DNA of 64,000 nucleotides from an uncultured Gammaproteobacteria bacterium (GCA_964533055.1 CAZHKZ010000002.1:8129-72128), one strand, 5' to 3'; shown: positions 6,911 to 44,211, counted from the first letter of the stretch. Notes: generated by a model from the sequence alone, not told the origin. A program made the numbers and translations.

Positions 6911-7884
6911 AAATAAGTGTCGTTATCCCAAACTACAATGGAGAGAAATTGCTCCCAAAGAATATACCTCGAGTTGTCACTGTCTTGAATGAATATTGCC
7001 AAAAGTTTTCGACAACAATTCAGTTAGTTATTTGTGATGATGCGTCAAAAGACAGCAGTGCCACATACCTAAAGGAACTTGAGAAAAAAAGTACGGATGG
7101 AAAGGTCTCATACACGATCGGAATTAGAGAGAAAAATGGTGGGTTTTCGGCAAATGTAAATTATGGAGTTAGTCTAGCAACGGGAGATGTTCTTATTTTA
7201 CTTAATACAGACGTGATTCCAGAAAAAGGGTTTCTTGAACCACTGATTAAGCATTTTAAAGATGAGAATGTTTTTGCTGTTGGATGTATGGATAAGAGTG
7301 TTGAGGAGGTTGGTCAGATTGTTCTAAGAGGGAGAGGGATTGGATCATGGGTCAGAGGATTCTTGCAGCATGGTAAAGGGGATTTGGCGATGAGCAATAC
7401 TCTCTGGGTGAGTGGAGGCAGCGGCGCATTCAGTAAAAAGATTTGGGATGAAGTTGGAGGACTAACTGAATTAATGAACCCATTTTACTGGGAAGATATA
7501 GATATTTCATATAGAGCTCAGAAGTTTGGGTATAAAGTTCGTTTTGAGAAAGAGAGTATAGTCAGACATGAGCATGAAGCTGGGTCAATTAAACAGAACA
7601 CAAAACCATATAAGGTAAGGGTTATTTCATACAGAAACCAATTTTATTTTGTTTGGCTCAATATTAGTGATTGGTCACTTATGCTTAATCATATATTCTG
7701 GTTGCCATTTCATATTTTTTCAGCTGCAAAAAGGAAAGATATTGCATTTCTTAAAGGATTTTCTCTTGCAATGCTTAATGTTGTTTTTGTGCTCAGGCAA
7801 AGAGCGCTCAATCTCAGAAGGTTCAAAATTAGCGATAAGATAATTTTAGGTCAATTTGCAAAGGAATCCTCAAATGATATTTGA
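6907..7884 (+). CDS. Family 2 glycosyltransferase
   Basis: Reads ISVVIPNYNGEKLL...VICDDASKDSS...LLNTDVIPEKGF...YWEDIDISYRAQKFG, a GT2 core. ATGA overlap. Confidence 0.8.
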   Translation: MKISVVIPNYNGEKLLPKNIPRVVTVLNEYCQKFSTTIQLVICDDASKDSSATYLKELEKKSTDGKVSYTIGIREKNGGFSANVNYGVSLATGDVLILLNTDVIPEKGFLEPLIKHFKDENVFAVGCMDKSVEEVGQIVLRGRGIGSWVRGFLQHGKGDLAMSNTLWVSGGSGAFSKKIWDEVGGLTELMNPFYWEDIDISYRAQKFGYKVRFEKESIVRHEHEAGSIKQNTKPYKVRVISYRNQFYFVWLNISDWSLMLNHIFWLPFHIFSAAKRKDIAFLKGFSLAMLNVVFVLRQRALNLRRFKISDKIILGQFAKESSNDI

Positions 7885-9802
7885 AGTAGCTTTTTTTTCT
7901 TTTGTTCTCTTCATAGTCTTTTATCTACCAGGGAGATTTATAGTAAGAAAGTTTGGTTATACATTTCAATCTCAGACAATTCATCTTCCAGTCTCTTTTG
8001 CTGTCGGACTTTCCTCATTCATATTCTGTACATTCCTCCTTTCATATATCCGCTTAGACTTTCTTTATAACTTGTTCATACTCGTTCCGATAATTTATGA
8101 ACTCAAACAGATGTATAGAATTCAAAAGAAGAGAAAGAAAAAATATAGCATTCCATTTCTTAAAATTCTCTTGCTTACTGCAGGTTCGCTTTGGATGACA
8201 TTTCTTATGTGGAATTCTGGCAGAATTATTGATAACTCAATTGTCTTCTATGCAGTTAACTCAGTTGATGCTATCTGGCATCTGAGTCTTATTGGGAACT
8301 TAACCCATTCATTTCCTCCAACACATCCTGGATTAGATCCAGTAACCCTAAAAGGATACAATTTTCTTTATGATTTCCTCTTAGCTAGGTTTGTTACCTT
8401 TTATAGCTTTGATAAATTAGATTTATTTTTTAGGTTGTTTCCTCCATTCATAGCAATTTTCTACGGTCTATCTGGGTTTGCATTAGCCCAGATGCTTAAA
8501 ATGAAAAAAATTACAGCTTTCATTTTTGTCTACCTGCTTTATTTTGGATTTGGTTTCGAAGAATTGCTCTCTCATATATTTAGAATTGATCTTGATCCAG
8601 GTATAGTACACTCTTCTGCAAACATGGTTGATCCATCAGTGATTCTTTCAGTGATTTTACTTTTTTGTATCTTCATTTTATTTTTCTCTGCAAAGAATGC
8701 CAAACAAACTTTATTGCCAGCAATAATGTTAGGGATACTTCCCATGATCAAAATTTATACAGCAGTTTTGGCATTTATATCTTTTGCATGTATCGTGTTA
8801 AAGGATCTTTTATCTAGAAAGTATCAATCTATTCCCTTTTTAATTTGCGCTGGAATTGTAGCTGCGACTTTCTATGTACCAACAAATTTTGGAGCAGGTT
8901 CACTAGTGTTTGCACCATTCTTGATCTTTAAACATTACATGGAAGGTGAAAAGGTTTTTCCTGATATGTTGTGGCCATTAAAGCTTGCGACCTATCAGGT
9001 TGATCATAATTTGATTAGAATTGTACAGCTTTATCTGATTGCCGTTCTAAGTTTTATTATTCCAAGTCTTGGAATAAATATGTTGTCATTGGTAGAGTTG
9101 AGAAATATTTTTAAAGTAAGAACACTATCAGACCAGAATATATTTTTGATTATATTTATTCTTGCTGGATTTGTTATCCCTACGCTTTTTATTCAAAGTA
9201 TTGCTGTTTTTGTCATTATGCAATTCATGTGGATAGCATGCATTATTCTTTTTATTCCAACTGCAAATTCTGTCGCCTATATTCTGCAAACCCCAGGGAA
9301 AATAAAAATCTTAATTCTTTTCTGTATATTTATTTTGCTTAGTCTGATTGAGATGGCACCGATCTATAAACTTTATTCATCTGAGCCAGAAAAATTTCAG
9401 TCTAATCAATTAGAACTTCTAATGCAATTGGGGAAAGTTGTTCCAAGCTCAAACTCTGTGCTTGTGATAAAGTCACCTGAGCAATCTGAGTACAATAAGA
9501 TACTCTACACAACGCCTCTTGTCTCTGCGCTCACTTCTCGTAACGTTTATTATGAGCCAGAGGTGCTTGAATTCGCAAAGTTAGATGAAGTGAGAAATAG
9601 CAGAATTACGAATACTGCTTATTTTGAGTTGATGCTCCAGAACTGTAACCGTGACAAAATTATTGATGAAATAAAGCAATTTAAGACTAGTACAGACGTA
9701 TCGTATCTGCTAGTATTTAAAAATTATTCCTGCCTCTCATCCATCCCTAATCTTAAGAAGATATATGGGAAGGATTCGCTTAGTCTGTACCAATTCCAAT
9801 AA
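7856..9802 (+). CDS. Polytopic integral membrane protein of unknown function (possible GT-C/polymerase-like)
   Basis: 648 aa, about 14 predicted hydrophobic helices and a roughly 150-aa C-terminal soluble region. No motif I recognise. The start could instead be the second ATG at 7874. Confidence 0.55.
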   Translation: MQRNPQMIFEVAFFSFVLFIVFYLPGRFIVRKFGYTFQSQTIHLPVSFAVGLSSFIFCTFLLSYIRLDFLYNLFILVPIIYELKQMYRIQKKRKKKYSIPFLKILLLTAGSLWMTFLMWNSGRIIDNSIVFYAVNSVDAIWHLSLIGNLTHSFPPTHPGLDPVTLKGYNFLYDFLLARFVTFYSFDKLDLFFRLFPPFIAIFYGLSGFALAQMLKMKKITAFIFVYLLYFGFGFEELLSHIFRIDLDPGIVHSSANMVDPSVILSVILLFCIFILFFSAKNAKQTLLPAIMLGILPMIKIYTAVLAFISFACIVLKDLLSRKYQSIPFLICAGIVAATFYVPTNFGAGSLVFAPFLIFKHYMEGEKVFPDMLWPLKLATYQVDHNLIRIVQLYLIAVLSFIIPSLGINMLSLVELRNIFKVRTLSDQNIFLIIFILAGFVIPTLFIQSIAVFVIMQFMWIACIILFIPTANSVAYILQTPGKIKILILFCIFILLSLIEMAPIYKLYSSEPEKFQSNQLELLMQLGKVVPSSNSVLVIKSPEQSEYNKILYTTPLVSALTSRNVYYEPEVLEFAKLDEVRNSRITNTAYFELMLQNCNRDKIIDEIKQFKTSTDVSYLLVFKNYSCLSSIPNLKKIYGKDSLSLYQFQ

Positions 9803-9804
9803 CT

Positions 9805-10521
9805 ATGAAATTATCAATTGTTGTCCCGATCTTTAATGAAGAAAAGACATTAGAGAAACTGCTCACTCGCTTAAATCGTCTAGTGATCCCCGGTGTTGTA
9901 CCTGAATTTATATTAGTAGATGATGGGTCTAGTGATGACTCAAAGAAGATAGCTCAAAATTTTGTAATTAATAAGAGAAATTTTTTCCTCTTTCTTCATA
10001 AAAGAAATGCTGGAAAAGGAGCTGCGGTTAGAACTGGGATTAAAAAAGCAAAAGGAGACTTCGTTGTTATTCAAGATGCAGACCTTGAGTATGATCCAGC
10101 TCAGTTAGAAGGTCTCATGAGACCAATTCTCAATCAAGAAGCGTTAGTTGTATATGGAACGAGGATTAAGCATTTTCCTGCGTTCAGAAAGGATCTTTCA
10201 AAAACACGTTTTTTTATTCATTTTATTGGCAATAGGCTCCTAAGTCTTTTAACAAGCCTTCTCTACTTTGAATGGATCACGGATATGGAAACATGTTATA
10301 AAATAATTCCACGTAAATTTTTCGAGAGAACTCAATTGAAATCTGAAGGGTTTTCATTCGAACCTGAAGTAACTGCAAAAATTCTTAAATCTGGACTTAA
10401 AATCAAAGAACTTCCAATTACGACCAGGCCTAGGGGGTATAAGCAAGGGAAAAAACTTAGGACAATTCCTGATGGTCTAGAGGCAGTCTGGGCATTGATA
10501 AAATATCGATTTATTGATTAA
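9805..10521 (+). CDS. Polyprenol-phosphate mannose/hexose synthase (Ppm1/DPM1-like GT2, soluble type)
   Basis: Reads LSIVVPIFNEEKTLEKLL...FILVDDGSSDDS...NAGKGAAVRTGIKKAKGDFVVIQDADLEYDP, the DPM1/GtrB-type GT2 signature. There is no C-terminal TM segment. Confidence 0.75.
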   Translation: MKLSIVVPIFNEEKTLEKLLTRLNRLVIPGVVPEFILVDDGSSDDSKKIAQNFVINKRNFFLFLHKRNAGKGAAVRTGIKKAKGDFVVIQDADLEYDPAQLEGLMRPILNQEALVVYGTRIKHFPAFRKDLSKTRFFIHFIGNRLLSLLTSLLYFEWITDMETCYKIIPRKFFERTQLKSEGFSFEPEVTAKILKSGLKIKELPITTRPRGYKQGKKLRTIPDGLEAVWALIKYRFID

Positions 10522-12195: not shown

Positions 12196-13839
12196 ATGAA
12201 GAAAAACACTTTTTTACTACTAGGGATCTTGCTAATTGCTTTCATTTTGCGTTTTTATGCGCTAGGTGATATTCCAAAGTCACCAGATTGGGATGAGGCA
12301 GCACTCGGCTACAATGCGTATTCGCTTCTGCATACAGGCATGGATGAATATGGCACTAGACTGCCAGTTGTCTTACGCTCCTTTGATGATTATAAGCCAG
12401 CTCTCTATGCATACCTCTCTGTTCCCTCTGTTGCAATTTTTGGCCTCAATGTATTTTCAATACGACTCATCTCTGCTCTTTTTGGAGTTGCAACAGTTAT
12501 AGCTTTTTATTTTCTTGTCAAAAAATTAACAAAGCATGATTTATTTTCTCTCATAGCAACTCTTCTTCTCGCAATTTCTCCATGGCATCTCCAGTTCTCG
12601 AGAACGGCATTTGAGGCAAATCTAGGCCTAAGTTTAATTGTCTTTACAGCATACTTTTTCCTCAAGGGAATTGAAAGGCACTGGTATTTGTCATTGAGCG
12701 CTTTTTTTGCTGGGCTTTCACTTTATGCTTATCAAAGTGAGAAGGTATTTACTCCTCTTTTCGTCTGCTTACTCTTAGTGATTTATTTTAGAAACCTTAT
12801 TCTTGTCAAGAAAAAATTCTTGATAACAGCCTTACTTGTAGGTGGTATTACTCTAACGCCATTTATTGTCTATACCATACAAAATCCTGAATCACTGGCT
12901 CGAGCAAAAGGAACTGTTGCTCTTATGACTGAGCGGGAGAAAATAAAAAATGATAATAGATATCACGATAATATTGCACAACAAAATAGCTTAGGAAGAG
13001 TGATTGACTCAAGGTTTTGGGTATATGGGTCTACTATTGTAAGTGGGTACTTTTCCCATTTTGATCCTAAGTGGCTCTTCCTTGAGGGAGATAATCCTCG
13101 TCACCACGCGCCTGATATGGGAATATTGTATTTTTTTGAATTCCCACTTCTTCTGATGGGTATGTACGCTCTCTTTTTTGATAAAAAGTATCTTAAAACC
13201 AAGAATACTAAGTTGTTAATAGCTGGGTGGTTACTTTTATCTCCTCTTGCTCCATCGGTAACAAATGATGTTCCTCATGCCGTGAGAAGCCTAACCATGC
13301 TGCCTATGATCGAGTTTATTGTGGCATTAGGAGGGGTCTCTTTTTTCTCATTTATTAAAAATATTAGGGTACATGGAAGAAGTCTCATGTATCCATTTAT
13401 CGTTGCTGGAGTAGTAGTCGTATTTTTCAATGTCAGCTACTATCTAGATCAGTATTATGTCCAAGCCCCTTATTTCAATGCAAAGGATTGGCAGTACGGA
13501 TACAAAGAGGTGGTGGCAAAGTTGGAGTCCCCAGAGTTTAGTGACATGAAGATTGTAGTTTCGGATGTTACCCCAATGGATCAGTCATACATCTTCTTTC
13601 TTTTTTATACTCAATTTGACCCGTCTAAATATCATGCGAGAATGGCTGAGTATGAGCGGACAGGTGTGCGTTCTTTTGATAACTATATCTTCAGAAAGAT
13701 TGAGTGGGAAAAAGATGCGCAAGAAAAAGATGCTATCTATGTTGGATCACCAGATAATTTCTCTGGTGAAACAATTGAATTTGGAGATGTATATTATCCC
13801 GATGGAACAAAAGCAATTGAGATTGTTAAACCACTATAG
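12196..13839 (+). CDS. PMT_2/ArnT-family GT-C glycosyltransferase, paralog 2 (tandem)
   Basis: Reads PDWDEAALGYNAYSLLHTGMDEYGTRLP...YKPALYAYL, clearly homologous to 10539-12194. Start placed at the ATG immediately after the upstream stop; the track start at 12175 overlaps. Confidence 0.75.
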   Translation: MKKNTFLLLGILLIAFILRFYALGDIPKSPDWDEAALGYNAYSLLHTGMDEYGTRLPVVLRSFDDYKPALYAYLSVPSVAIFGLNVFSIRLISALFGVATVIAFYFLVKKLTKHDLFSLIATLLLAISPWHLQFSRTAFEANLGLSLIVFTAYFFLKGIERHWYLSLSAFFAGLSLYAYQSEKVFTPLFVCLLLVIYFRNLILVKKKFLITALLVGGITLTPFIVYTIQNPESLARAKGTVALMTEREKIKNDNRYHDNIAQQNSLGRVIDSRFWVYGSTIVSGYFSHFDPKWLFLEGDNPRHHAPDMGILYFFEFPLLLMGMYALFFDKKYLKTKNTKLLIAGWLLLSPLAPSVTNDVPHAVRSLTMLPMIEFIVALGGVSFFSFIKNIRVHGRSLMYPFIVAGVVVVFFNVSYYLDQYYVQAPYFNAKDWQYGYKEVVAKLESPEFSDMKIVVSDVTPMDQSYIFFLFYTQFDPSKYHARMAEYERTGVRSFDNYIFRKIEWEKDAQEKDAIYVGSPDNFSGETIEFGDVYYPDGTKAIEIVKPL

Positions 13840-13840
13840 T

Positions 13841-14470
13841 TTAGGAGCGTTGCAGAACTGTGATATTAAGCCAGTGTTTTCCTTCTATCAGATCTTTATC
13901 TCTCCCATCATACTCAAAATATCCATTTGCTCGCCTCATCTCAGGCAGGTTTTTAAGAAAAATGATCGTATACGTGTCACGCTCTTTATAGATAATACCT
14001 CTTTGGTCTTTAAAGATAATTTCACGACCATTTTTGACAGTTAGATAGTCCTGTGGAAGTGCAGTTAAATCAGTAAGATAATCAATGCTATAAAGTCTTT
14101 TACTTGTAAAGAAAAGGATGGCACTACTACTTGTTGCAAGTTTTGTCTCAGGTCCCACAACCTCCTTTGCTAAAGATAGCTGTTTGGGATCAAGTCCATG
14201 CGCATTGAAATTAAAATATCCTGGTGAGTAGAACTCTCTAAATTTCCAGTATGTTTGCTCGTCAATTTTGTTAGAAGTCTTAACAGATTTGATGAACTCA
14301 TTCCAAACAAGTGTACGTTTAAAGGGAAAAAGAGAGCTTGAAACCTTTGGTACGAGTAGAAGGAATGAGAGAATGAGCGCTAGGGAGACGCCGATAAGAA
14401 ATACTACTGTTTGGCGCTCAGAACTGCTAGATGAGCTTTGTGTTTTTTGAGAGTGTTTACTATAATGCAT
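13841..14470 (-). CDS. Hypothetical signal-anchored protein (Ser-rich N-terminus, one TM, roughly 160-aa extracytoplasmic domain)
   Basis: This 209-aa ORF is the only long ORF on either strand in the interval 13840-14475. It has an N-terminal SSSSSS tract and the TM segment VVFLIGVSLALILSFLLLV. It is convergent with the upstream gene (1-nt gap) and lies 5 nt from the start of the next + gene. Confidence 0.5.
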   Translation of the reverse strand: MHYSKHSQKTQSSSSSSERQTVVFLIGVSLALILSFLLLVPKVSSSLFPFKRTLVWNEFIKSVKTSNKIDEQTYWKFREFYSPGYFNFNAHGLDPKQLSLAKEVVGPETKLATSSSAILFFTSKRLYSIDYLTDLTALPQDYLTVKNGREIIFKDQRGIIYKERDTYTIIFLKNLPEMRRANGYFEYDGRDKDLIEGKHWLNITVLQRS

Positions 14471-14475
14471 AGAGT

Positions 14476-16161
14476 GTGAGAATTAAGAGATTTGACTTAT
14501 TTTGTCTAGGTATTATCTTCGCAGAATCAATTGTATTCTTATTTGATTTTTTCATGAACCCGGGTAGATTTGCAAGTTTTGATGCCCCATTCCATATCAC
14601 CAATATTGCTCAGTTTGCAAATTCCTTACTTGACGGTAATTTCCCGGTTGTTTGGACAGATGGATTTGCAAATTATGGGCTTCCAATTGGTATTGTAGCA
14701 CACCAAATGACCTCCTATTTAGGCGCCCTGTTCTCATTACTCTTTAATGATCCCTATATGGGTTTTAAGGCTGTTGCTTTTATTGGAGTTGCGGGATCAG
14801 CACTGCTTTATTTTGTTTTTTTGAAACTTTATTTTTCTCCTCAAGTTGCACTTGCAGGAGCGACTCTTTTTAACCTCGCATCCTACAGGATCTTTAACTT
14901 TTATGTGAGAGGTGCGCTCCCTGAGATTTTTTCAGCCGTTTTTCTTCCCTTGATCCTTGTGGGGCTTTATTTTTTTATTGAGAAGAAAAATAGTAAAGGA
15001 TTGTTTCTCTTTGCACTATCAATATTCCTGTTAGCGGTGACTCATCCATTTATGCTTCTCATTTATGGAATTATCTATGGTCCTTACGCGCTCTATTTGC
15101 TATCAAAGAATGCTGGAGCAAAGTCTCTCCTTACAAAAAACTCAGTAAAGAAAGTTGTCTCGCTTTTTATTGCGCTCGGAATTGGCATTGTAAGTGCTAG
15201 TTTTTATCTCATACCTTTGAGTCGTGAAATAAGGTATTTTTATTACGGTCTCAACCCATCTAATCTTGAGCCGAATAGCTTTTTTTCATTTTCGTCATTC
15301 CTTAATTTCTCATGGCCGTATTTTACGCCAACTGAGACCTTCCCTCGTGGCCATATAGTGACATTGGGGATACTTGAGCTTGTTGGATTGTTAGCGGGGA
15401 TTGTTCTACTCGTTGTGCTTTTGAGAAAGAAAGAAAAGACAGAAAATGATGGATTTGTTATTTTTTCTGGGATTATCGCTCTCATTCTGATTTTCTTTAT
15501 GACCTCACTTTCAAGTGTTTTTTACACCTACTTACCTCTGCTTAATCAGATTCAATTTCCCTGGAGAATGATCTCTGGTCTTATTTTTATTATCCCAATT
15601 TTTTATTGCTATGTATTTTCAAAGAAGAATTCTCTCTTTCTTCTTGGCATATTTATGATGATTATTTTGTTGTTGAGACTACCTGAGTTATATGGTAAGA
15701 ATTACACATATATCCCCAAAAGTAGCTATGACAAGACTCTTATTAATGTCCACTCAGTACTTATGAACACGATTTGGACAGGAAAGACTGAAGAGTATCC
15801 TGTGAAGTCTTTGAAGGGAGAAATAATTGAGGGGAATGGCAGCATTGTTAAAAGAGAAGAGCATGTCGCAAAGAGAGAGTACGAAGTTCAAGCAGATAGT
15901 GCGATCAGGCTTGTAGATAATACATTTTACTTTCCAGGGTGGAAGGTATTTGTTGATGGGGTAGATACTCCTATTGAATTTCAGGACCCATCATATAGGG
16001 GAGTGATTACATACGCTGTGCCAGCAGGATCGCATCAGGTCGAGGTAGTATTTAAAGATACAAAGATCCGTTTAGTCAGCAAGATTTTGAGTCTTGGGGG
16101 CCTGATATTTTTGACTGGACTATTTATCATGAGAAAAAGAGTAGGTAGAATTATTTTTTAA
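14476..16161 (+). CDS. Uncharacterized polytopic membrane protein, GT-C-like with YfhO-like C-terminal domain (family A, copy 1)
   Basis: GTG start. Conserved N-terminal loop DGNFPVVWTDGFANYGLPIGI and C-terminal FYFPGWKVFVDGV...YRGVITYAVPAGSHQVEVVF, followed by a terminal TM helix. The C-terminal motif resembles that of the YfhO-like gene at 4679. Confidence 0.6.
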   Translation: MRIKRFDLFCLGIIFAESIVFLFDFFMNPGRFASFDAPFHITNIAQFANSLLDGNFPVVWTDGFANYGLPIGIVAHQMTSYLGALFSLLFNDPYMGFKAVAFIGVAGSALLYFVFLKLYFSPQVALAGATLFNLASYRIFNFYVRGALPEIFSAVFLPLILVGLYFFIEKKNSKGLFLFALSIFLLAVTHPFMLLIYGIIYGPYALYLLSKNAGAKSLLTKNSVKKVVSLFIALGIGIVSASFYLIPLSREIRYFYYGLNPSNLEPNSFFSFSSFLNFSWPYFTPTETFPRGHIVTLGILELVGLLAGIVLLVVLLRKKEKTENDGFVIFSGIIALILIFFMTSLSSVFYTYLPLLNQIQFPWRMISGLIFIIPIFYCYVFSKKNSLFLLGIFMMIILLLRLPELYGKNYTYIPKSSYDKTLINVHSVLMNTIWTGKTEEYPVKSLKGEIIEGNGSIVKREEHVAKREYEVQADSAIRLVDNTFYFPGWKVFVDGVDTPIEFQDPSYRGVITYAVPAGSHQVEVVFKDTKIRLVSKILSLGGLIFLTGLFIMRKRVGRIIF

Positions 16162-16165
16162 TCAT

Positions 16166-17863
16166 ATGAGATTTTTTAAGGATAACTTTTCATCTCTTCT
16201 TTTTCTTTTACTCCTCTCAGTAGTGACCATTCTCCCAGCACTTTTATACCCCCAGAGATCAGCCAACATGGACGGCATTGTTCATACTCTTGTTCCAAAT
16301 CTTTTCGCAAAGGCAATAAGTCAGGGCGACTTCCCTGTGACATGGGTTGATGGGTTCGCAAATTATGGGCTACCACTTGGAATTATTTCTCATCAAGTGA
16401 CCACATACTTAACTGCATTTATTATCCTTATTGTTCAAAATCCAGTAGTTGCATTTAATATAGTCGGTTTTATCGGAATTCTTCTCTCGAATATTTTTTT
16501 CTTTCTCTTTTTAAAAAAATACTTTTCAACACCTACGTCACTCACCGCAGTAGTTCTCTTTAATTTCTCACCATATAGAATTCTTAATTTTTATATTAGA
16601 GGTGCAATGCCTGAATTCTTTGCCAGCGTGTTCATACCCCTCATACTCCTCAGCCTTTTTGGCATATTTAAGGAAAGAAGAGTGTCAAGCTTTTTCCTCC
16701 TCATCCTGTCGGTGTGCTTTCTCATATTGACCCATCCTTTTATGTTAGTGGTAAGCCTCTTTCTCGTTGTTCCATACATTCTCTTTCTTACTGTTACAGA
16801 TGAGAAAATAGGTGAGTGGATAAGATCCTTTTTTAGAAAGAATATTCGTCCCATTATCGTGTCTTCTCTTGGTTTTGTAGTTGGCACAGGAATAGCATCT
16901 TATTTTCTCCTTCCGCTTCAAAAAGAGATTCAGTATTTTTATTATGGACTTTCTCCAAATCATCTAACCGCCAATAGCTATCTCACTCTTTATAATTACG
17001 TCGCCAACCCATGGGCTTACTTTACGAAGCTTGATATTGTGCATAGAGGATTCCTCATTAATGTGGGAATAATTGAATCACTTCTGGTTGTTTTAGCAGG
17101 AGGATTTTTTCTTTATAAAATTGTGAGTCTCAGAAGAGCCTATAAGGTAAGTATTGTTGATTTTGGCTTCTTTTGCTCCCTTATCATTATCTTTATGATG
17201 AGTCCATGGAGCACAGTTTTTTATGAGAAAATCCCAATGTTAAGTAACGTGCAGTTCCAATGGCGAATGCTTTCAGGCTTTATATTTCTTCCCCCTATCA
17301 TCGCAGCCTTTTTTCTCTCGAAGGTATCATCGCTAAAGTATCATGTACTTCTCATCCTCACTGTCCTTGTAGTAATAATGCCTCAACTTTATGGAAAGAA
17401 CTACACGCAGTACCCACAAGGGTATTACTCGTTTACGCCATTGAATCTTCATGCGACTGTTATGAATACGATTTGGAGTGGTGAGTCAGGAGAGTATCCT
17501 GTAGGTAAGCCTAAGGCTGAAATTATCCAGGGAGATGGATCGGTAAAGATTGAGAAGATGAAAGATTCACAGAGAGCATATCTTATTAATGCAAAGAGTG
17601 ATGTCCGCGTTGTTGATCGAACATTCTATTTTCCTGGATGGAATCTTTTAGTTGATGGCGTAAATCAACCGATTCAGTTCCAAGATCCTCTCTACAGAGG
17701 GGTTATTACCTATGATGTTCCCAAAGGTGATCATCGTATAGTGCTTGATTTTAAGCCAACAAAAACACGAATGGTTGGGGAATATCTTTCACTATTCTTT
17801 ATAGGTATAGTAGTAGGTATGTATTTATTTAGAAAAAAGATCCAGAGATTTATGCGAGAATAA
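16166..17863 (+). CDS. Uncharacterized polytopic membrane protein, tandem paralog of 14476-16161 (family A, copy 2)
   Basis: Reads QGDFPVTWVDGFANYGLPLGI ... FYFPGWNLLVDGV...YRGVITYDVPKGDHRIVLDF. It has the same architecture and similar length (565 vs 561 aa) as copy 1. Confidence 0.6.
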   Translation: MRFFKDNFSSLLFLLLLSVVTILPALLYPQRSANMDGIVHTLVPNLFAKAISQGDFPVTWVDGFANYGLPLGIISHQVTTYLTAFIILIVQNPVVAFNIVGFIGILLSNIFFFLFLKKYFSTPTSLTAVVLFNFSPYRILNFYIRGAMPEFFASVFIPLILLSLFGIFKERRVSSFFLLILSVCFLILTHPFMLVVSLFLVVPYILFLTVTDEKIGEWIRSFFRKNIRPIIVSSLGFVVGTGIASYFLLPLQKEIQYFYYGLSPNHLTANSYLTLYNYVANPWAYFTKLDIVHRGFLINVGIIESLLVVLAGGFFLYKIVSLRRAYKVSIVDFGFFCSLIIIFMMSPWSTVFYEKIPMLSNVQFQWRMLSGFIFLPPIIAAFFLSKVSSLKYHVLLILTVLVVIMPQLYGKNYTQYPQGYYSFTPLNLHATVMNTIWSGESGEYPVGKPKAEIIQGDGSVKIEKMKDSQRAYLINAKSDVRVVDRTFYFPGWNLLVDGVNQPIQFQDPLYRGVITYDVPKGDHRIVLDFKPTKTRMVGEYLSLFFIGIVVGMYLFRKKIQRFMRE

Positions 17864-17867
17864 TTTT

Positions 17868-18419
17868 ATGAAATACATTTATATTTTTATAGTATTTCTC
17901 TATCTTGCGATTACAACAGCTCTGTATTTCCAGCGAAATAGTGAGAGGATGTCATTGCCACTCACACCTTTTGTCTCTGATGATGCTTCAGCTCAAAGAT
18001 TAGCATATAGCTTTGCATATGACACCACAGATAATTCTCTTTTTATTGTAAGATTGGTTCATAATAAGGTTGAAACATCTCTCCATACATTTTTCTCATC
18101 AGCACTTAGGGCAGCAGACATACCCTTTCTCTTTGGCCTCTCAAAGACAGTTTCTTCACCTTATCAAATGGATTACAAGATACCCCCATTATTCTTAGTT
18201 GAATTACCCTTCTTTTTATTCTCTTGTTGGTACTTCATAACTAGGTACGAAAATGAGAAAAAAACTGTGATAGTCTTTGCACTTTCAGGAATAGTGAGTC
18301 TTATGATTGTGGGACTCTTTACCCCAGCTCTTCATCCATTGACTTTGCTTCCCCTTGTTCTCTGTATAAGAACGTTCACAGGTATTGGTGTTGTTAGTTT
18401 TATAAAAAGTAAAAAATGA
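17868..18419 (+). CDS. Hypothetical small membrane protein
   Basis: 183 aa with hydrophobic helices at both ends. It sits within the operon, and the downstream gene overlaps it with ATGA. Confidence 0.45.
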   Translation: MKYIYIFIVFLYLAITTALYFQRNSERMSLPLTPFVSDDASAQRLAYSFAYDTTDNSLFIVRLVHNKVETSLHTFFSSALRAADIPFLFGLSKTVSSPYQMDYKIPPLFLVELPFFLFSCWYFITRYENEKKTVIVFALSGIVSLMIVGLFTPALHPLTLLPLVLCIRTFTGIGVVSFIKSKK

Positions 18420-20077
18420 AAGAAAAAATTTGTATCGTTGTATTTATCTGTATAGGGATCTTTTTGCGTGTTTATCAATTTGGCTCAGTACCCGCGGGTC
18501 TTTTTTCGGATGAAATATCTATTGCTGTTAATAGCAAGACGATTGCTCAAAGTGGAGTTGATGAATACGGAAGGACATATCCATTTGCATTTGAATCGCT
18601 TTCAGATTATAAAATGCCTGGATATATTTATCTCAGCGCAGTTGCATACAAAATTTTTGGTCCATCAGTTGCATCAGTACGAATTACTGCACTCATTGCC
18701 TCTCTAATTAGTATCTTCTCATTCGCGTATTTAGCACAACTCCTTTTTCCTAAGAGGAAAAATATTTTTCTCTATACGTGTCTTGTTGTTTCTCTTTGCC
18801 TATTTCATATTCATTTTTCTCGAATTGCATATGAGACGATGCTGGCTACGATGTGGCTCAGTATATTCCTCATTGGTTTTTGGAAAGTTGTCCATGAAAA
18901 GATACGGTTACACTGGGTAGTCATCACTATCTGCTGTGCAATCTTTAGCATGTGGTCTTACTATGCCCCTCGTTTTATCATCCCATTATTCTCTTTTGGC
19001 TATCTATTCTATTTAATGCTAATGGCGGAGAAGGGGAAGCGACTTTCATATCGACCCTGGCTGATTGTACTTGCTGCGACAGTAATAGCGTACCTCCCGA
19101 CATTTTTTGGATCCAAAATTGACAATAGGCCTCTAAGCTATCTTATGTCAGATACGGGTGGGGGAATAATTGCATCGGTTTTACTCAAGGCAAGATCAGT
19201 TCTCGCATCATTCACTTGGATATTCAACCTTGAATTCTTATTCGATAAAGGTGATCAATTTGCTTTTAGACATGGTACAAAAAATAACGGTGTCTTTATG
19301 AGTATATTTTTAGTTCCATATATTCTTGGCCTCCTTTTTATTTTTAAAAACTTTGCTATGAAGAACAAATCAATAGTATTTATTTGCATGTTTGCGATTG
19401 TAGCGGGGCTCCCGTCATCCCTGACATCACCGGTTCCTTACGCACCAAGACTGCTTCCAATGGTCCTTCCACTAACTCTACTTATTAGCTTAGGCATTGT
19501 TGGATGCAGAACATTACTTGAGAAAACGAGGAGGTTTGTGCAGATAGGGATTATAGTGGGAGTAGTATGCTTGCTTATGTATCAAATTCTTGTCTTCAGC
19601 CATCTTTACTTTGTTCATTTTGCGAAAGACAGTCAGCCAGAATTCTCGCAAGCATCAGTTGACCTGGGAAAATATATTGCCATTCAGCATGCTAGTGCAC
19701 CTGAAAATAATATTTATTACTTGAATGGTAAGAGTTGTCATAATTGGGGGCACGATGATCTTTATTTATGGTATTACACAGAACTTCCAAATAAAGAGTT
19801 GATCGCATGGAATAATTTGTTTAGAGATGAGAGATATAAAGAATCGAGCCCATTTGATGCGTATGACCATATCATTGCCCCATCTGGTCATATCGGCTCT
19901 ATCTTTATTAATTTACCACTTGAGGAAGTAATCTCTGCTCCAAAAGGGTCATTGATAGTTCGATGTGGTATCAATGAATCGTCTATTGAGAAGAATAATG
20001 AGAAAATTGTAAAGGCCTTTTATATGTATCCAAAAGAAAGTAGAGAGCTTTTTTATATTGTGACAGTTAAGCTCTAG
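18416..20077 (+). CDS. PMT_2/ArnT-family GT-C glycosyltransferase, paralog 3
   Basis: Reads LFSDEISIAVNSKTIAQSGVDEYGRTYPFAFESLSDYKMPGYIYL, with the same loop-1 DE motif and Y(K)xPxYIY pattern as 10539 and 12196. Confidence 0.7.
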   Translation: MKEKICIVVFICIGIFLRVYQFGSVPAGLFSDEISIAVNSKTIAQSGVDEYGRTYPFAFESLSDYKMPGYIYLSAVAYKIFGPSVASVRITALIASLISIFSFAYLAQLLFPKRKNIFLYTCLVVSLCLFHIHFSRIAYETMLATMWLSIFLIGFWKVVHEKIRLHWVVITICCAIFSMWSYYAPRFIIPLFSFGYLFYLMLMAEKGKRLSYRPWLIVLAATVIAYLPTFFGSKIDNRPLSYLMSDTGGGIIASVLLKARSVLASFTWIFNLEFLFDKGDQFAFRHGTKNNGVFMSIFLVPYILGLLFIFKNFAMKNKSIVFICMFAIVAGLPSSLTSPVPYAPRLLPMVLPLTLLISLGIVGCRTLLEKTRRFVQIGIIVGVVCLLMYQILVFSHLYFVHFAKDSQPEFSQASVDLGKYIAIQHASAPENNIYYLNGKSCHNWGHDDLYLWYYTELPNKELIAWNNLFRDERYKESSPFDAYDHIIAPSGHIGSIFINLPLEEVISAPKGSLIVRCGINESSIEKNNEKIVKAFYMYPKESRELFYIVTVKL

Positions 20078-20986: not shown

Positions 20987-22519
20987 ATGAAAGCTCTCAC
21001 GACATTAAATCAAGATAAATGGTGGCAGCTACTCCTAGCTCTGATAATTCTTTCCACACTTTTTGTTGGAATTGGAACAATTCTCATTGGTAACTTTCCA
21101 TTTTGGTATGATCCAGCGAGAGATTTTTTGATGGCATGGGACAATCTGTCACACCCAACATTGATTGGACCTACATCTGGAATACCCGGAATTTTCTATG
21201 GACCGTATTGGATCTGGTTACTCTCAGTTGGTGTGTTCATTTCTAAAGACCCCAGAATTGCCATGTTAATTGTCCTAGCAATCCCTTACTTGCTCATTTT
21301 GCCCATATTCTTTATCCGAGCCATGAAGTCATACGGGAAGGTCGCATTGGTGGGAGTTTGGGGACTTTATGCTGCAACATTTGGAATTGAATATGCTACA
21401 AAGCCTTGGAATCCCTATCTTGCACCAATTCTCCTCATTGTTCTCATTGCAATATTCTCCAATCTTGAACTGAAGAATATCTCTAAAAATACAATTTCTC
21501 GCTTGCTATTAGCAGGAATTGTGGGTGGGCTAATCGCAAATGCCCATCTGTCTCTTGGATCTGGGATACTGATTGGCTCAGGTTTCTATTTGATTTTATC
21601 GACAATATTTGCTGACTCAGTGAGTAGAGGAGATTTAGTGAAAAGACTCATTCATAGCGTAGCTTCGGGCGTGGTTTTTGTAATTGGGGTAGGGATTAGT
21701 TTTATTCCATATATGCTTTTTGAAGCTAGGCATGGGTTTAACCAGACTAAGATGCTTATTTTTATGGTGACGAGTCCATTCCCGGTTGTCGGAGTTTTGG
21801 GCTTAAGTAAAGATGATATTTTACGTCAATTTCCATTAGTAGCAGTTCGCCTGCTTGGTATTCCAGAGAAGTTTATTGTGATTGTTTTCGCTGTTATCAC
21901 ACTTCTATTTATCATATTGCTTGTTGAGAAGAAGATCGCTTTAACATTGTCGGACAAAAAAATATTGGGAAGCATTTCGTGCATCTTTGTAGCACTTTTT
22001 ACAATTTATATGACGTCTAAAAATCCAGTTTGGGAGTATCATTTTATAGGTATGGAAGTTCTTTTACTTTTCTACATCCTTATCATTGCAGATAAGATGC
22101 GCTTAATCAGATTTGCAATCATTATTTTTGCTGGAAGCTTGTTGATTTCACATGTGTCAAGTTTCACCCATGTTTTGCAGTCAGATGAGCGTTTTGAAGA
22201 TGTCTTGTCTACAAAGGTTGAAGTAACCGAATCTGTGATGAGAGATGCGAAAGGTTCTAATTATGTTGTATATCCACATAGTTCATCGATTTATACATAT
22301 GATTATGCCTATCTTTTTAGATGGAAAAAGGGAGTGAATGTTCCATTTGATCCTTCACAGAATACATATAAGTCAAATACCGCATATCTTATTATTCCTT
22401 CAGTGGGAACAGCTGTAAAGCAAGATTTTATTTCAGGAAAGACCAGGGACGGCGGATATGTGCTTACCAAAGAATGGGCTGTTCGAGAAGTGGAAGTGCA
22501 AAAAATTGAAAAGAAATGA
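20987..22519 (+). CDS. Uncharacterized polytopic membrane protein (possible GT-C)
   Basis: 510 aa with about 12 hydrophobic helices. The N-terminal loop carries NFPFWYDPARDFLMAWDN. No family assigned. Confidence 0.5.
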   Translation: MKALTTLNQDKWWQLLLALIILSTLFVGIGTILIGNFPFWYDPARDFLMAWDNLSHPTLIGPTSGIPGIFYGPYWIWLLSVGVFISKDPRIAMLIVLAIPYLLILPIFFIRAMKSYGKVALVGVWGLYAATFGIEYATKPWNPYLAPILLIVLIAIFSNLELKNISKNTISRLLLAGIVGGLIANAHLSLGSGILIGSGFYLILSTIFADSVSRGDLVKRLIHSVASGVVFVIGVGISFIPYMLFEARHGFNQTKMLIFMVTSPFPVVGVLGLSKDDILRQFPLVAVRLLGIPEKFIVIVFAVITLLFIILLVEKKIALTLSDKKILGSISCIFVALFTIYMTSKNPVWEYHFIGMEVLLLFYILIIADKMRLIRFAIIIFAGSLLISHVSSFTHVLQSDERFEDVLSTKVEVTESVMRDAKGSNYVVYPHSSSIYTYDYAYLFRWKKGVNVPFDPSQNTYKSNTAYLIIPSVGTAVKQDFISGKTRDGGYVLTKEWAVREVEVQKIEKK

Positions 22520-24048
22520 AAAACTTTTTTAAACCCATATTTATCCTTTTAGCGATAGTATTGCTTGCTGCGTTCCTGAGACTTTATAAAGTAGACTCAA
22601 ATCCGCCAGGACTTTACATTGACGAAGTCTCTATTGGTTATAACGCCTACACGATTCTGACTAAAGGCGTTGATGAGTATGGTACTCCGTTCCCATTATG
22701 GTTTAGGTCGTTCGGAGATTATAAGATGCCTGTCTATATCTATGCTGTTAGTGGTTCGATGTTGGTATTTGGTAAGACAGAGCTCGCAGTAAGATTGCCA
22801 TCAATTGTGGCGGGTATCATGACCGTACTTATTCTCTATCTTTTTATTAGAGGGTTTGAAAAAAAGACAGATAAGCGGGGTGAATATAAATATCTAGCAA
22901 TATTAAGCTCATTTCTCCTAAGCATTTCTAGCTATCATATTCAGTTTTCTAGAGGTGGCTTTGAAGTCAACGTAGCGCTCTTTATTTTCTTGAGCGGTTG
23001 TCTCTTCCTTCAGTACTTCTTAAAATACCAGCAAAAAAAATATCTCGCAGTAAGTTTTTGTCTTTTTGTTTTAAGTTCATACACGTATCATTCTTTCAGA
23101 GTTCTTGCTCCGATAGCTATTTTCACAGGACTCATTCTCCTTAATACTATGCGAAGTCTCACGAGGAGAGAAATTTTTTTGAGCGGAATAAGTTCGCTGA
23201 TATTATTTTTGCCGTTAATTATTTTTTCAGTAAGTCCAAATGGATCACAAAGATTTAGTCAGACCTCGATTTTTTCAGAATATCCGCTTACAAACGAATG
23301 GGCAAAGCTTTATACGTATCCAATGGTCCTTTTAAAAAATTACGTTTCGTATTTTTCGCTTCATTTTCTTTTTAGTTTTGGAGATGGCATTGGGAGACAT
23401 CAGGTTCCAGGTTTTGGCCTTCTTTTTAGAACTCAGCTCCCACTTCTGATTGCAGGTATTGCTGCACTCATTAAGATGAGAAAGACTATGCTTGCAAGAA
23501 CAATGCTATTTTTGCTCCTTGTTGCGCCAATCCCTGCAATGCTTGCAAGACCAAGTCCTCACAGCCTCAGACCACTTCTTATTGTCATTCCGTTAACAGT
23601 GATTATGGCCATGGGCCTGCGCTACCTCTTTACTGGGTTTGGAAGATGGGGTAGGGGTGTTGTACTTATCTTAGCCTGCATCTTCGTGTATGAGTTTAGC
23701 TCTTACCTTTTTAGCTACTATGTTCGCTACCCGCAGATCAATGCCCTTGATTGGGGAGCAGGATATAAAGAGATTGTTCAGAAGGCAGGAGCGCATAAAG
23801 ACGAATATCCACGTATTGTTATTGATAAAAAACTTGATAATGCTCTAATCTATTTCAAATTTTACGACGAGTCTCTTGATCCTATTCTTGTAGGCAACGA
23901 CTGGAAATTTCCATTGGGAATAAGCGGTGTTAAAACAATGTATATTCGGCCAAATTATGGCAACGTATCTGAAAATGTTTTTGATACGGTTAAATTGCCT
24001 GGGAAATATGGCGATACGTTCGCTCAGTTTTGGAGGGAAAGTCAGTGA
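22516..24048 (+). CDS. PMT_2/ArnT-family GT-C glycosyltransferase, paralog 4
   Basis: Reads LYIDEVSIGYNAYTILTKGVDEYGTPFPLWFRSFGDYKMPVYIY, with the same DE-loop signature. ATGA overlap upstream. Confidence 0.75.
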   Translation: MKNFFKPIFILLAIVLLAAFLRLYKVDSNPPGLYIDEVSIGYNAYTILTKGVDEYGTPFPLWFRSFGDYKMPVYIYAVSGSMLVFGKTELAVRLPSIVAGIMTVLILYLFIRGFEKKTDKRGEYKYLAILSSFLLSISSYHIQFSRGGFEVNVALFIFLSGCLFLQYFLKYQQKKYLAVSFCLFVLSSYTYHSFRVLAPIAIFTGLILLNTMRSLTRREIFLSGISSLILFLPLIIFSVSPNGSQRFSQTSIFSEYPLTNEWAKLYTYPMVLLKNYVSYFSLHFLFSFGDGIGRHQVPGFGLLFRTQLPLLIAGIAALIKMRKTMLARTMLFLLLVAPIPAMLARPSPHSLRPLLIVIPLTVIMAMGLRYLFTGFGRWGRGVVLILACIFVYEFSSYLFSYYVRYPQINALDWGAGYKEIVQKAGAHKDEYPRIVIDKKLDNALIYFKFYDESLDPILVGNDWKFPLGISGVKTMYIRPNYGNVSENVFDTVKLPGKYGDTFAQFWRESQ

Positions 24049-24620
24049 AGAGGATACTACTTATAGTCATTGCTATTATTCAGATTGCATACTTTTCGTA
24101 CTGGTATTCGTGTCTAAGACTCGCTGATTTCTACTATTTTTCAGCCTTTAATTTAAAGTTACGACTTGAAGATACAGCTCGATATGATTCATATCAGCCG
24201 TATCTGATTGCAAAGATTTTCAACAATAAAGTAAGCGGATTCGCTGTCGAAGTTTATTCAATACTCTCACATTATTTGGATATCACATTTTTAATCCAGT
24301 TCTTCTCACTTATAGGTTGTTTTGGGATTGTCCTCGGGTTTCATTTTATTTGGAAGCGAGAAAAGGCTAAGGCCATGGCTTTGTTTGTAGGAATTGTCTC
24401 GCTTTTGATCCTCAGTATCTTTTTGCCATCTAACAGATTCTTTGTGCCGTTTATCTTTACATTCATGGCTACAGGTCTCTTACTGTCTCTATATGGTGTG
24501 AAAAAAGCACTCGACTCAAAGCCAAGACTCTTGCCAGTTTTTGTCCTCCTCATACTATTAAGCATCTGGTGGTTTTTTGTGTTTGGTTTAAATTTGATCC
24601 AATTCTGCATAGCTAAGTAA
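24030..24620 (+). CDS. Hypothetical small membrane protein
   Basis: 196 aa with 4-5 hydrophobic helices. It overlaps the upstream gene's end by 19 nt, so the start is uncertain. Confidence 0.4.
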   Translation: MEGKSVKRILLIVIAIIQIAYFSYWYSCLRLADFYYFSAFNLKLRLEDTARYDSYQPYLIAKIFNNKVSGFAVEVYSILSHYLDITFLIQFFSLIGCFGIVLGFHFIWKREKAKAMALFVGIVSLLILSIFLPSNRFFVPFIFTFMATGLLLSLYGVKKALDSKPRLLPVFVLLILLSIWWFFVFGLNLIQFCIAK

Positions 24621-43840: not shown

Positions 43841-44211
43841 TAAATCAAAGTAATATTTTGATTAGAATCTTGTCTAAGGACAGCGTGCGACTATTGATCT
43901 TAGTCACTTTACTAGTGTTAACAATTATCTCAGGCAAGTTCCCCTACGTAAATCTGATTGCAAATCATTATTTCTATGGAATTGGAGTCGTGATGGTGCT
44001 TGCGTTGTTATTTTTTAAACAATACATTAATGAAAGGAGAAATAAGATTATACTAATTTGCGAAATTGTCATAGCAGTAATAGTCAAGATTATCGGGAAT
44101 CAACAGGTAGAAGATATAGTTGGTTTTATTTTATTCGTTACATTATTATTAATTGTAATACTTGGCATAGCATCGCAAAGAAGTAAGCTCGCTTTGTATT
44201 TGAAGAAATGA
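43816..44211 (+). CDS. Hypothetical small membrane protein
   Basis: 131 aa with 3 hydrophobic helices. It overlaps the end of the upstream gene by 25 nt, and the downstream gene is ATGA-coupled to it. Confidence 0.4.
   Translation: MEKKNKKLINQSNILIRILSKDSVRLLILVTLLVLTIISGKFPYVNLIANHYFYGIGVVMVLALLFFKQYINERRNKIILICEIVIAVIVKIIGNQQVEDIVGFILFVTLLLIVILGIASQRSKLALYLKK

Follow-up and report, generated by a model that had tools for sequence, protein, structure and literature searches.

Closest Described Systems

The two proteins reported here belong most directly to PF10131 (PTPS_related), a family that Pfam places in its GT-C clan, CL0111, and whose function is given as 'unknown' (PMC7801869). The name PTPS_related does not suit membrane proteins that resemble glycosyltransferases, and our literature searches found no member with demonstrated activity. 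YfhO (YfhO of B. subtilis, Lmo1079 of Listeria) is a GT-C membrane protein whose part in the extracellular glycosylation of LTA and WTA, together with CsbB, was defined genetically (PMC5836110). The two proteins share with it the GT-C type and a C-terminal motif, FYPxWxAxIDG...RGV..P.G.H, but differ from it in their EL1 signature (FDxxxH plus FPVxW..GFANYGLP). The logic of YfhO and CsbB, a GT2 lipid-sugar synthase combined with a GT-C protein (PMC5836110), probably applies to them as well.

The GtrA/GtrB/GtrX, ArnC/ArnT and PPPRS-MATE-GT136 systems offer a further comparison, as the island under study likewise contains ArnC/GtrB-like and DPMS-like synthases, and its GT-Cs carry a C-terminal putative carbohydrate-binding domain, as in GT136 (PMC11127046). 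Unlike these three-component systems, the island has no dedicated flippase that we could identify, and its synthase genes do not adjoin the pair. Pmt1/2/4 (GT39) and AftD/AftA (GT-C class A) share 9-13% sequence identity with the two proteins, which lack the MIR domain of Pmt and the large soluble domains of AftD and have just one small beta-sandwich, with an additional TM anchor behind it. Finally, GPI-MT-I (PIG-M/Gpi14 with PIG-X/Pbn1) is a GT-C enzyme needing a single-pass membrane partner (PMC12653191). A single-TM protein of 209 aa is likewise genomically locked to the GT-C here, with no sequence or fold relation to Pbn1 demonstrable.

Two Adjacent PF10131-Type Paralogs

The window, meaning the whole 64,000-nt stretch of DNA analysed, carries the genes ORF A and ORF B 4 nt apart (Table 1), at exactly the interval, 14476-17863, which a sequence-only reading had delimited for the pair. 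The two proteins are 43% identical across 538 aa (BLASTP, E 2e-145), a likeness which, judged from the sequences, is homology and not chance, and their earlier description as tandem divergent paralogs is thus borne out. So are the two motifs described in both of them, namely the loop DG[ND]FPV[VT]W[TV]DGFANYGLP[IL]GI[VI][AS]HQ[MV]T[ST]YL, found at aa 53-82 in each, and the C-terminal TFYFPGW..VDGV..PI.FQDP.YRGVITY.VP.G.H. AlphaFold2 modelled A (pLDDT 89.8, pTM 0.91) with about 11 TM helices, a beta domain of eight strands (aa 448-526) and a last TM helix (530-551), about 12 TM helices in total. This agrees with the architecture proposed earlier, of about 12 TM helices, a C-terminal beta-rich domain and a TM anchor at the end.

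Table 1. Features of the locus, with positions counted from the first nucleotide of the window.
Feature	Position	Strand	Remarks
YfhO-family GT-C, 743 aa	4679..6910	+	PF09586, 64.6 bits
GT2, 238 aa, candidate polyprenyl-phosphate sugar synthase	9805..10521	+	DPMS-like catalytic domain, no TM
Partner, single-TM protein, 209 aa	13841..14470	-	Divergent from ORF A
ORF A, predicted PF10131-type GT-C glycosyltransferase	14476..16161	+	GTG start, 561 aa; first gene of the pair
D36-A-P-F-H40 of A	14581..14595	+	About 9 residues past TM1; Asp and His both invariant
Conserved loop of A, aa 53-82, DGNFPVVWTDGFANYGLPIGIVAHQMTSYL	14632..14721	+	Second half of EL1 and start of TM2
Extracytoplasmic beta-sandwich of A, aa 448-526	15817..16053	+	AF2 strands; holds TFYFPGWxVxVDG...YRGVITYxVPxGxH
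Terminal TM anchor of A, aa 530-551	16063..16128	+	Model helix 530-551; hydropathy peak at aa 540
ORF B, paralog of A	16166..17863	+	ATG start, 565 aa
D36-G-I-V-H40 of B	16271..16285	+	Same invariant pair; preceded by Met instead of Phe
Conserved loop of B, aa 53-82, QGDFPVTWVDGFANYGLPLGIISHQVTTYL	16322..16411	+	Alignment to A
Beta-sandwich of B, about aa 451-529	17516..17752	+	Placed by alignment to A
ArnC/GtrB-like polyprenyl-phosphate glycosyltransferase, 310 aa	46137..47069	+	C-terminal TM; second candidate donor synthase

PF10131, which had been named first among the Pfam candidates, indeed matched A (37.3 bits, for a gathering threshold of 26.4) and 47 of 51 homologs (E<=0.01), while B, at 25.7 bits, fell 0.7 under the threshold; a fused distant relative (P0222) also belongs to PF10131. 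The match is limited to aa 81-399 (profile positions 10-301 of 621), and both the EL1 loop and the C-terminal beta domain lie outside it. The family is large, with about 2,580 representatives at E<=1e-30 (50%-identity clusters). It shows the traits expected of the GT-C fold, namely a polytopic membrane protein (8-13 TM expected, about 12 in the A model) with a conserved N-terminal TM module and a long EL1 and, shortly past TM1, a conserved EL1 acid (D36), which would be catalytic by its position. No match to PF02366 or PF13231 (PMT/PMT_2) was obtained for A or B at E<=1, and neither the pair nor the unknown ORFs next to it were matched in NCBIfam. With the family profile, the search of PDB sequences yielded TMEM260 only, at a non-significant E of 0.74, and hhalign comparisons with the PMT_2 protein of ORF 12175 (probability 4.6%) and with ORF 7856 (0.2%) were discarded as giving no usable relation. 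As a case of paralog expansion in a glycan island, the pair is ordinary.

Conserved Residues and a Candidate Catalytic Acid

Conservation was computed by column over 51 homologs, A and B both included. Thirty-nine columns were invariant and 62 near-invariant; these were concentrated in extracytoplasmic loops and included acidic and basic residues, and all the family-invariant residues were kept by both A and B. The invariant set includes D36, H40, R145, E150, H190, E251, R291, W363, R364 and K408, which sit, according to the topology of the model, within or at the ends of extracytoplasmic loops. The best-conserved stretch of the family was the C-terminal beta motif (aa 481-520), with 21 of its 40 columns at 90% identity or more. 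The 30-aa loop of EL1 ranked among the top 15% of 30-aa segments, with 10 of its 30 columns at or above 90% identity versus 18% for the entire protein. In the loop of A, W60 and G68 are invariant, and G54, V58, F64, N66, Y67, P70, Q77 and Y81 are at least 90% conserved. The loop was retained in orthologs, where its loss had been named as an argument against the assignment.

The Asp of the W-x-D-G motif in this loop (D62) had been considered as a possible GT-C catalytic site. It was rejected as a catalytic residue on account of its low conservation, since Asp was found in 34 of the 51 homologs (67%) and was otherwise replaced by Asn (12), Gly (3), Ser (1) or Glu (1); a residue replaceable by Asn or Gly is unlikely to be catalytic. 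By contrast, the acid that never varies in this extracytoplasmic loop (EL1) is D36, which occurs with H40 in an FDxxxH motif just past TM1, each of the two residues being present in 51/51 homologs. At the place of D36, more distant fused homologs display HDE, HDG, HDD or DDS. An acidic motif of EL1 is found in GT-C enzymes at the position matching D36 (PMC7801869), which makes this residue a candidate for the catalytic EL1 acid. As for the loop itself, DSSP analysis of the A model detected bridges at two loop residues, 61 and 69, along with a short strand at 31-32, which suggests that the loop packs against the stretch right before D36. The most likely role of the FPVxWxDGFANYGLPxGI loop is as a scaffold for the D36 region and not as the source of the catalytic acid.

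Duplication History

The A and B copies formed sister clades in the tree, and the pair also occurs in six or more further species-level genomes (L002, L003, L007, L009, L011 and L014), so that the question raised earlier of its conservation in related genomes can be answered positively. About 65 of 79 loci contained a single copy of this subfamily. The phylogeny points to one duplication within a Levybacteria subclade, from which A and B both derive, with ORF A retaining the ancestral-type sequence and ORF B being the derived copy. Seven substitutions are diagnostic of the two clades, and all of them are derived in B. Three lie beside invariant residues, namely F35M by D36, M192F by H190-P191 and H293F by R291-G292, and the others are A45N, Q46L, Y244F and S427A. 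As derived substitutions of B adjoin invariant residues, the specificity for donor or acceptor most likely differs between the two proteins.

The Glycan Island and the Proposed Mechanism

The pair lies in a surface-glycan island of about 62 kb, and the named records of homologs suggest that its host is a CPR bacterium of the Microgenomates, probably of the Levybacteria. The GT-Cs of the window comprise one YfhO, two PF10131 and five PMT_2-type proteins (among which ORF 18416 is a weak, sub-threshold match), so that the three YfhO-like GT-Cs counted in the sequence-only reading were both too few and mislabelled. At least six further polytopic membrane proteins of similar size, unassigned to a family, are also present.

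Two lipid-sugar synthases could provide a donor. ORF 9805 matched PF00535 (113.9 bits), and its best PDB sequence match was the dolichol-P-mannose synthase of Pyrococcus (5mlz, E 7e-16, aa 1-234); orthologs with 51-58% identity, syntenic with the pair, occur in L003, L007, L009, L014, L015, L019 and L022. ORF 46137 was matched by phmmer over its full length to ArnC (9bhc, E 2e-44) and GtrB (5ekp, 6.5e-31), with TM peaks at aa 238-275. The presence of a DPMS-like and an ArnC/GtrB-like synthase fits extracytoplasmic glycosylation from polyprenyl-phosphate sugars; given the many other GT-Cs of the island, neither synthase can be tied to A or to B in particular. A GtrA-type flippase was looked for in the window without success, ORF 43816 (131 aa, about 4 TM) being a candidate by its size only. 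Two small membrane ORFs, 17868 and 24030, did not convincingly resemble one another or the GT-C next to them.

In our favoured reading, to which we give a probability of about 0.72, A and B are paralogous GT-C glycosyltransferases of PF10131, probably both active, with donor, acceptor and catalysis proposed from fold and context as follows. A cytoplasmic GT2 (ORF 9805 and/or ORF 46137) would load a sugar onto polyprenyl phosphate, and the lipid-linked sugar would be flipped across the membrane. At the outer face, A and B would each transfer this sugar to a cell-surface acceptor, which may be a glycan, a glycolipid or a protein. D36, with H40, would be the catalytic or acceptor-activating acid, while the phosphate of the donor would be bound by the invariant R145, E150, H190, E251, R291, R364 and K408 on extracytoplasmic loops. 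The C-terminal beta-sandwich would hold the acceptor; such putative carbohydrate binding is proposed by analogy with GT136, which carries a C-terminal CBM (PMC11127046). A and B may act on successive or alternative steps, with differing donor or acceptor specificity.

A Conserved Head-to-Head Partner and Alternative Explanations

The start codon of ORF A lies 5 bp from that of a divergent gene encoding the 209-aa protein, which has an alpha/beta domain of about 165 aa with an invariant WxFREFYSPG motif, as well as two further conserved motifs, WFN[IV]T and the Ser-rich PKVSSxLFPFKR beside the membrane helix. This gene adjoins a PF10131-family gene divergently in about 72 of 75 related loci, with one partner gene per A-B pair, always upstream of the A-type copy. 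The positive-inside rule left the orientation of the protein ambiguous (flanking K+R 3.6 vs 3.1), and a promoter and terminator scan of 13500-18600 performed no better than shuffles (18 vs 15.0 expected; 4 vs 3.7). The conserved head-to-head partner is the new element here, and the only one that could lead somewhere new. Its genomic association suggests that the family works together with this protein, which may be an accessory subunit, an acceptor or a chaperone.

Heteromeric GT-C complexes include Pmt1-Pmt2 and EmbA-EmbB, and A and B might similarly be subunits of one complex, possibly with the partner as a bitopic third, although we consider this rather unlikely. The 4-nt adjacency is kept in at least seven species-level genomes, and natural fusions in which one polypeptide contains two full modules exist among more distant relatives (P0222, 1093 aa, on three independent contigs; P0235, 1116 aa), as do arrays with 4 and 6 matched stretches; such a fusion of two modules is topologically possible owing to the even TM count. 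That each pair has a single partner gene, which always lies upstream of A, points in the same direction, as does the precedent of a GT-C with a bitopic subunit in GPI-MT-I (PMC12653191). However, with a single copy in most loci (about 65 of 79), a heterodimer was not an ancestral requirement, and fusion and adjacency fit sequential steps of a pathway equally well. A broader and similarly doubtful proposal sees the PF10131 subfamily of Microgenomates as the catalytic core of an undescribed extracytoplasmic glycosylation machine, in which the 209-aa protein would be obligatory and, in the Levybacteria subclade, the enzyme would have been duplicated to give an A-B heterodimer. The partner, with its Mog1/PsbP/DcrB-like domain, might then present the lipid-linked donor or the acceptor. 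The heterodimer would resemble Pmt1-Pmt2 or EmbA-EmbB, and the two-module fusions would foreshadow it.

It is improbable that the pair performs protein glycosylation of the PMT/OST type, with the divergent 209-aa protein as dedicated acceptor substrate. Weak PMT_2 matches were observed in 13 of the 51 homologs, the partner carries the PKVSSxLFPFKR and WFN[IV]T motifs, and in streptococci GT-C enzymes are known to glycosylate membrane proteins at Ser/Thr-rich regions (PMC12041528). Yet Asp, Ser or Thr may stand in place of the Asn in the N-x-T-like motif, the membrane orientation of the partner is ambiguous, as noted above, and the glycan-modifying AftD and AftA score equally high.

The term 'YfhO-like', applied earlier to A and B, is right in a loose sense only. 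The C-terminal motif does echo that of the gene at 4679, with 19 of 47 residues identical between the C-termini of A and ORF 4679 (BLASTP, pairwise E 2e-10), and the family profile aligned with this YfhO-like protein by hhalign at a probability of 95.5%, over 125 core columns only. On the other hand, neither A nor B had a match to PF09586 (YfhO) at E<=1, and only 1 of 51 homologs had one at E<=0.01, while ORF 4679 scored 64.6 bits in the same Pfam search. Filing the pair under YfhO was therefore rejected, PF10131 being the consistent assignment. That A and B are true YfhO-family orthologs glycosylating teichoic-acid-like polymers is accordingly very improbable, despite the established function of YfhO (PMC5836110) and the JGI label 'membrane protein YfhO' on a 101-aa fragment in the cluster of B. 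The YfhO-like ORF is indeed longer by about 180 aa (743 vs about 560 aa), and the window showed no recognisable genes for teichoic-acid synthesis. Equally remote is the idea of non-enzymatic membrane proteins with a GT-C-like fold (a transporter, a scaffold or decayed duplicates), in view of the 39 invariant and 62 near-invariant columns, mostly in extracytoplasmic loops and all kept in both copies, of the size of the family, and of its embedding in glycan operons.

Significance for CPR Bacteria

To our knowledge, the surface chemistry of CPR/Patescibacteria is essentially uncharted, and our literature searches found nothing specific on GT-C expansions in CPR. These bacteria are ultra-small episymbionts, and at least eight GT-C enzymes are gathered in this glycan region of about 62 kb. 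The GT-C assignment gives handles on a large family, namely D36, the substitutions diagnostic of B and a near-obligatory partner gene.

Family Assignment of the Tandem Pair

The two adjacent ORFs A and B lie on the same strand, 4 nt apart, at exactly the positions given by the sequence-only reading, and share 43% identity over 538 aa (E 2e-145, pairwise comparison), the loop DG[ND]FPV[VT]W[TV]DGFANYGLP[IL]GI..HQ.T.YL at aa 53-82 and a C-terminal motif, TFYFPGW..VDGV..PI.FQDP.YRGVITY.VP.G.H. The AlphaFold2 model of A, computed with 51 homologs as input, is confident (pLDDT 89.8, pTM 0.91). In it, TM1 (aa 5-27) is followed by loop 1, which is long (28-76) and includes an amphipathic helix (37-52); after ten more membrane helices come a beta domain of eight strands (448-526) and the final TM helix (530-551). 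The ORF map, the pairwise comparison and this model thus confirm the descriptive part of the sequence-only reading, namely tandem ORFs sharing a loop and a C-terminal motif.

ORF A belongs to PF10131 (PTPS_related; 37.3 bits, cutoff 26.4), while B scored 25.7 bits against the same cutoff and both matched DUF6541 weakly. Among the 51 homologs of the family, Pfam matches were to PF10131 (47), DUF6541 (36), PMT_2 (13) and YfhO (1). PF10131 is a family of unknown function in the Pfam clan CL0111 of GT-C integral-membrane glycosyltransferases (PMC7801869), in line with the Foldseek match of the A model to STT3/PglB (E ~7e-5, probability 1.00). No NCBIfam model matched, and sequence-only comparison with the PDB was uninformative (best match TMEM260, E 0.74). 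The earlier GT-C assignment, with PF10131 as first candidate, was thus right, and A and B are new, uncharacterised members of this glycosyltransferase family, encoded in a CPR surface-glycan island.

The description of the pair as YfhO-like stands in part. The family profile aligned with ORF 4679, the YfhO-family protein of the window, over 125 core columns (hhalign probability 95.5%), and the C-terminal beta motif is recognisably common to both (19/47 identical), so that the label is valid at the level of the superfamily and of this motif only. Orthology with YfhO was rejected, since PF09586 matched neither A nor B at E<=1 and only one of the 51 homologs; the kinship is remote.

Conserved Loop and Candidate Catalytic Residue

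The loop at aa 53-82 had been flagged, with the question of whether the acidic residues of its W-x-D-G stretch form a GT-C catalytic site. In the alignment of 51 homologs (A numbering), it is indeed well conserved, being one of the 15% most conserved 30-aa windows, with 10/30 columns conserved at >=90%: W60 and G68 do not vary at all, and G54, V58, F64, N66, Y67, P70, Q77 and Y81 reach that level. The family's conservation peak is however the C-terminal beta motif (aa 481-520, 21/40 columns at >=90%). Moreover, D62, the Asp of W-x-D-G, is replaced in 17/51 homologs (D 34, N 12, G 3, S 1, E 1). Since a third of the homologs naturally have Asn or Gly here, this residue is an improbable catalytic acid. 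By contrast, D36, the sole invariant acid of loop 1, lies about 9 residues past TM1 in an F-D-x-x-x-H40 motif, at the position of the acidic motif of extracytoplasmic loop 1 (EL1) of GT-C enzymes ("DD motif in EL1"; PMC7801869), where distant two-module relatives carry HDE, HDG, HDD or DDS. This conservation makes D36, rather than the W-x-D-G Asp, the catalytic candidate. From a mechanistic point of view, the other invariant charged residues (R145, E150, H190, E251, R291, R364 and K408), which the A model places within extracytoplasmic loops or at their ends, would form the donor-phosphate and acceptor site. In the model, DSSP assigned a short strand to 31-32 and bridges to residues 61 and 69, so the flagged loop probably lies packed on the stretch that precedes D36, and may support the active-site loop structurally rather than act as the catalytic centre. 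Overall, the interpretation in the sequence-only reading is supported in part: its GT-C and PF10131 assignments stand, and its YfhO-like label holds in the restricted sense given above.

Distribution, Duplication and Fusion

CPR genomes of the Microgenomates type abound in members of the subfamily. A word-indexed search gave 356 subfamily matches, with names including Levybacteria and Roizmanbacteria, and a one-genome-per-species collection gave 353 confirmed places (named Levy-, Roizman-, Woese-, Pace- and Beckwithbacteria); family representatives at 50% identity numbered 2,580 at E<=1e-30 and 9,841 at E<=1e-10. Many TPA_asm MAGs with the Microgenomates-type cluster among the 79 fetched loci (L001-L079) carry the title "uncultured Gammaproteobacteria" or "Pseudomonadales", with "Limisphaerales" and "Weeksellaceae" on single records; such labels look unreliable.

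Most of these 79 loci hold a single copy. The tandem pair is conserved, an A-like gene being followed by a B-like one in six of them (L002, L003, L007, L009, L011 and L014); L041 holds an independent tandem. A-type (12) and B-type (9) sequences formed sister clades in a neighbor-joining tree, which indicates one duplication within a Levybacteria subclade, followed by retention of both copies. All 39 family-invariant residues are present in both A and B. Seven positions are fixed differently between the clades, with the outgroup state in A and the derived state in B at 7/7: F35M (beside D36), A45N and Q46L (EL1 helix), M192F (beside H190-P191), Y244F, H293F (beside R291-G292) and S427A. This pattern fits a specificity change rather than decay, and the pair is an old, retained duplication with signs of such a change in B.

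Among more distant relatives, two complete PF10131 modules occur in one polypeptide in P0222 (1093 aa; L082 4001-7282) and P0235 (1116 aa), while P0221 (1670 aa) and P0225 (3329 aa) contain 4 and 6 matched stretches. P0222, present on three independent contigs, has a third PF10131 gene before it and a GT87 GT-C after it. Tandem arrays of the module are thus recurrent, a pattern that would suit a heteromeric complex as well as successive steps of one pathway.

Glycan Island and Proposed Activity

Nearly the whole window (1-62000) is one glycan-biosynthesis island on one strand, ending at RecO (62108). It comprises about 19 glycosyltransferase genes of GT2 (~10) and GT4 (~9), at least eight recognisable GT-C genes, and sugar-tailoring genes (epimerases/dehydratases, a DegT aminotransferase, GNAT and hexapeptide acyltransferases, methyltransferases). 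Six 500-700-aa polytopic proteins with 8-14 hydropathy peaks each had no Pfam or NCBIfam match and could be additional divergent enzymes of GT-C or polymerase-like type; two of them (7856 and 20987) keep synteny in related Levybacteria loci. Two small multi-TM ORFs (17868 and 24030), each directly 3' of a GT-C gene, are also syntenic in related loci, with no family and no convincing mutual similarity.

Features of the window (positions in nt; start only where a single number is given)
Feature	Position	Strand	Description
ORF A	14476..16161	+	GTG start, 561 aa; PF10131
ORF B	16166..17863	+	ATG start, 565 aa; PF10131
Partner	13841..14470	-	209 aa; one TM helix, then ~165-aa domain
Overlapping ORF	13565-14044	+	159 aa; overlaps end of ORF 12175 and 3' part of partner gene; probably a spurious frame
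YfhO-family GT-C	4679		PF09586, 64.6 bits
PMT_2 GT-Cs	10539, 12175, 18416 (weak), 22516, 53488
Polytopic, without family (at least six)	7856-9802, 20987-22519, 31671-33167, 33160-34662 (-), 37595-39703, 44208-46100
Small multi-TM ORFs	17868-18419, 24030-24620		183 and 196 aa
Wzx-like flippases	42, 26683
Candidate polyprenyl-phosphate sugar synthase	9805-10521		TM-less DPMS-like GT2; best PDB match 5mlz
Candidate polyprenyl-phosphate sugar synthase	46137-47069		ArnC/GtrB-like GT2; matches ArnC (E 2e-44) and GtrB (6.5e-31) over its full length; C-terminal TM helices
Small membrane protein	43816-44211		131 aa, ~4 TM segments
GT4 N-terminal domain only	47283-47810		175 aa; may be a truncated duplicate or split gene
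Complete GT4	47815-48933		372 aa, directly after the preceding ORF
Wzy_C-like (O-antigen ligase/polymerase)	50368-53481		1037 aa, ~24 hydropathy peaks; sub-threshold, 27.7 bits (cutoff 31.7); may be a fused or duplicated polymerase-like protein
ManC-like nucleotidyltransferase	58180
Bac_transf initiating transferase	59399

By their similarities, ORFs 46137 and 9805 look like polyprenyl-phosphate sugar synthases. The latter matched the catalytic domain of Dol-P-Man synthase from Pyrococcus (E 7e-16), and related genomes keep its ortholog in synteny with the A-B pair. Two genes upstream of 46137, the protein encoded at 43816 resembles GtrA-type flippases in size and topology, with a weak DUF2079 match (E 0.002) and no PF04138 match. 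The component logic of the island matches that of known systems, i.e., the CsbB/YfhO extracytoplasmic glycosylation system (PMC5836110) and a synthase-flippase-GT-C system in which the GT-C bears a C-terminal CBM (PMC11127046). A polyprenyl-phosphate sugar would be the donor for A and B, which would move the sugar onto a surface acceptor at the outer face of the membrane, an activity to which we give a probability of about 0.7.

A Divergent Partner Gene

The partner gene is divergent from A, with start codons 5 bp apart. By tblastn, 67 of the 69 loci with room have a homolog directly upstream of the family gene and divergent from it, at 6-262 bp, and an HMM found it in 72/80 sources, adjacent and divergent in 83/86 matches; overall, pairing concerns about 72 of 75 related loci. 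In the HMM survey, it was missing despite room only in L056, L078 and L079, and tandem second copies never had a partner of their own. In the protein, the motif W-x-F-R-E-F-Y-S-P-G is invariant and the juxtamembrane stretch PKVSSxLFPFKR is conserved. The protein has no relative in Pfam, NCBIfam or PDB sequences; its confident model (pLDDT 88.1) weakly matched Mog1/PsbP/DcrB/START-like folds. It may act as an accessory subunit, for which Gpi14-Pbn1 offers a precedent (PMC12653191), as an acceptor protein, or as a donor- or acceptor-presenting factor. This near-obligatory head-to-head partner is the one feature of the locus worth pursuing.
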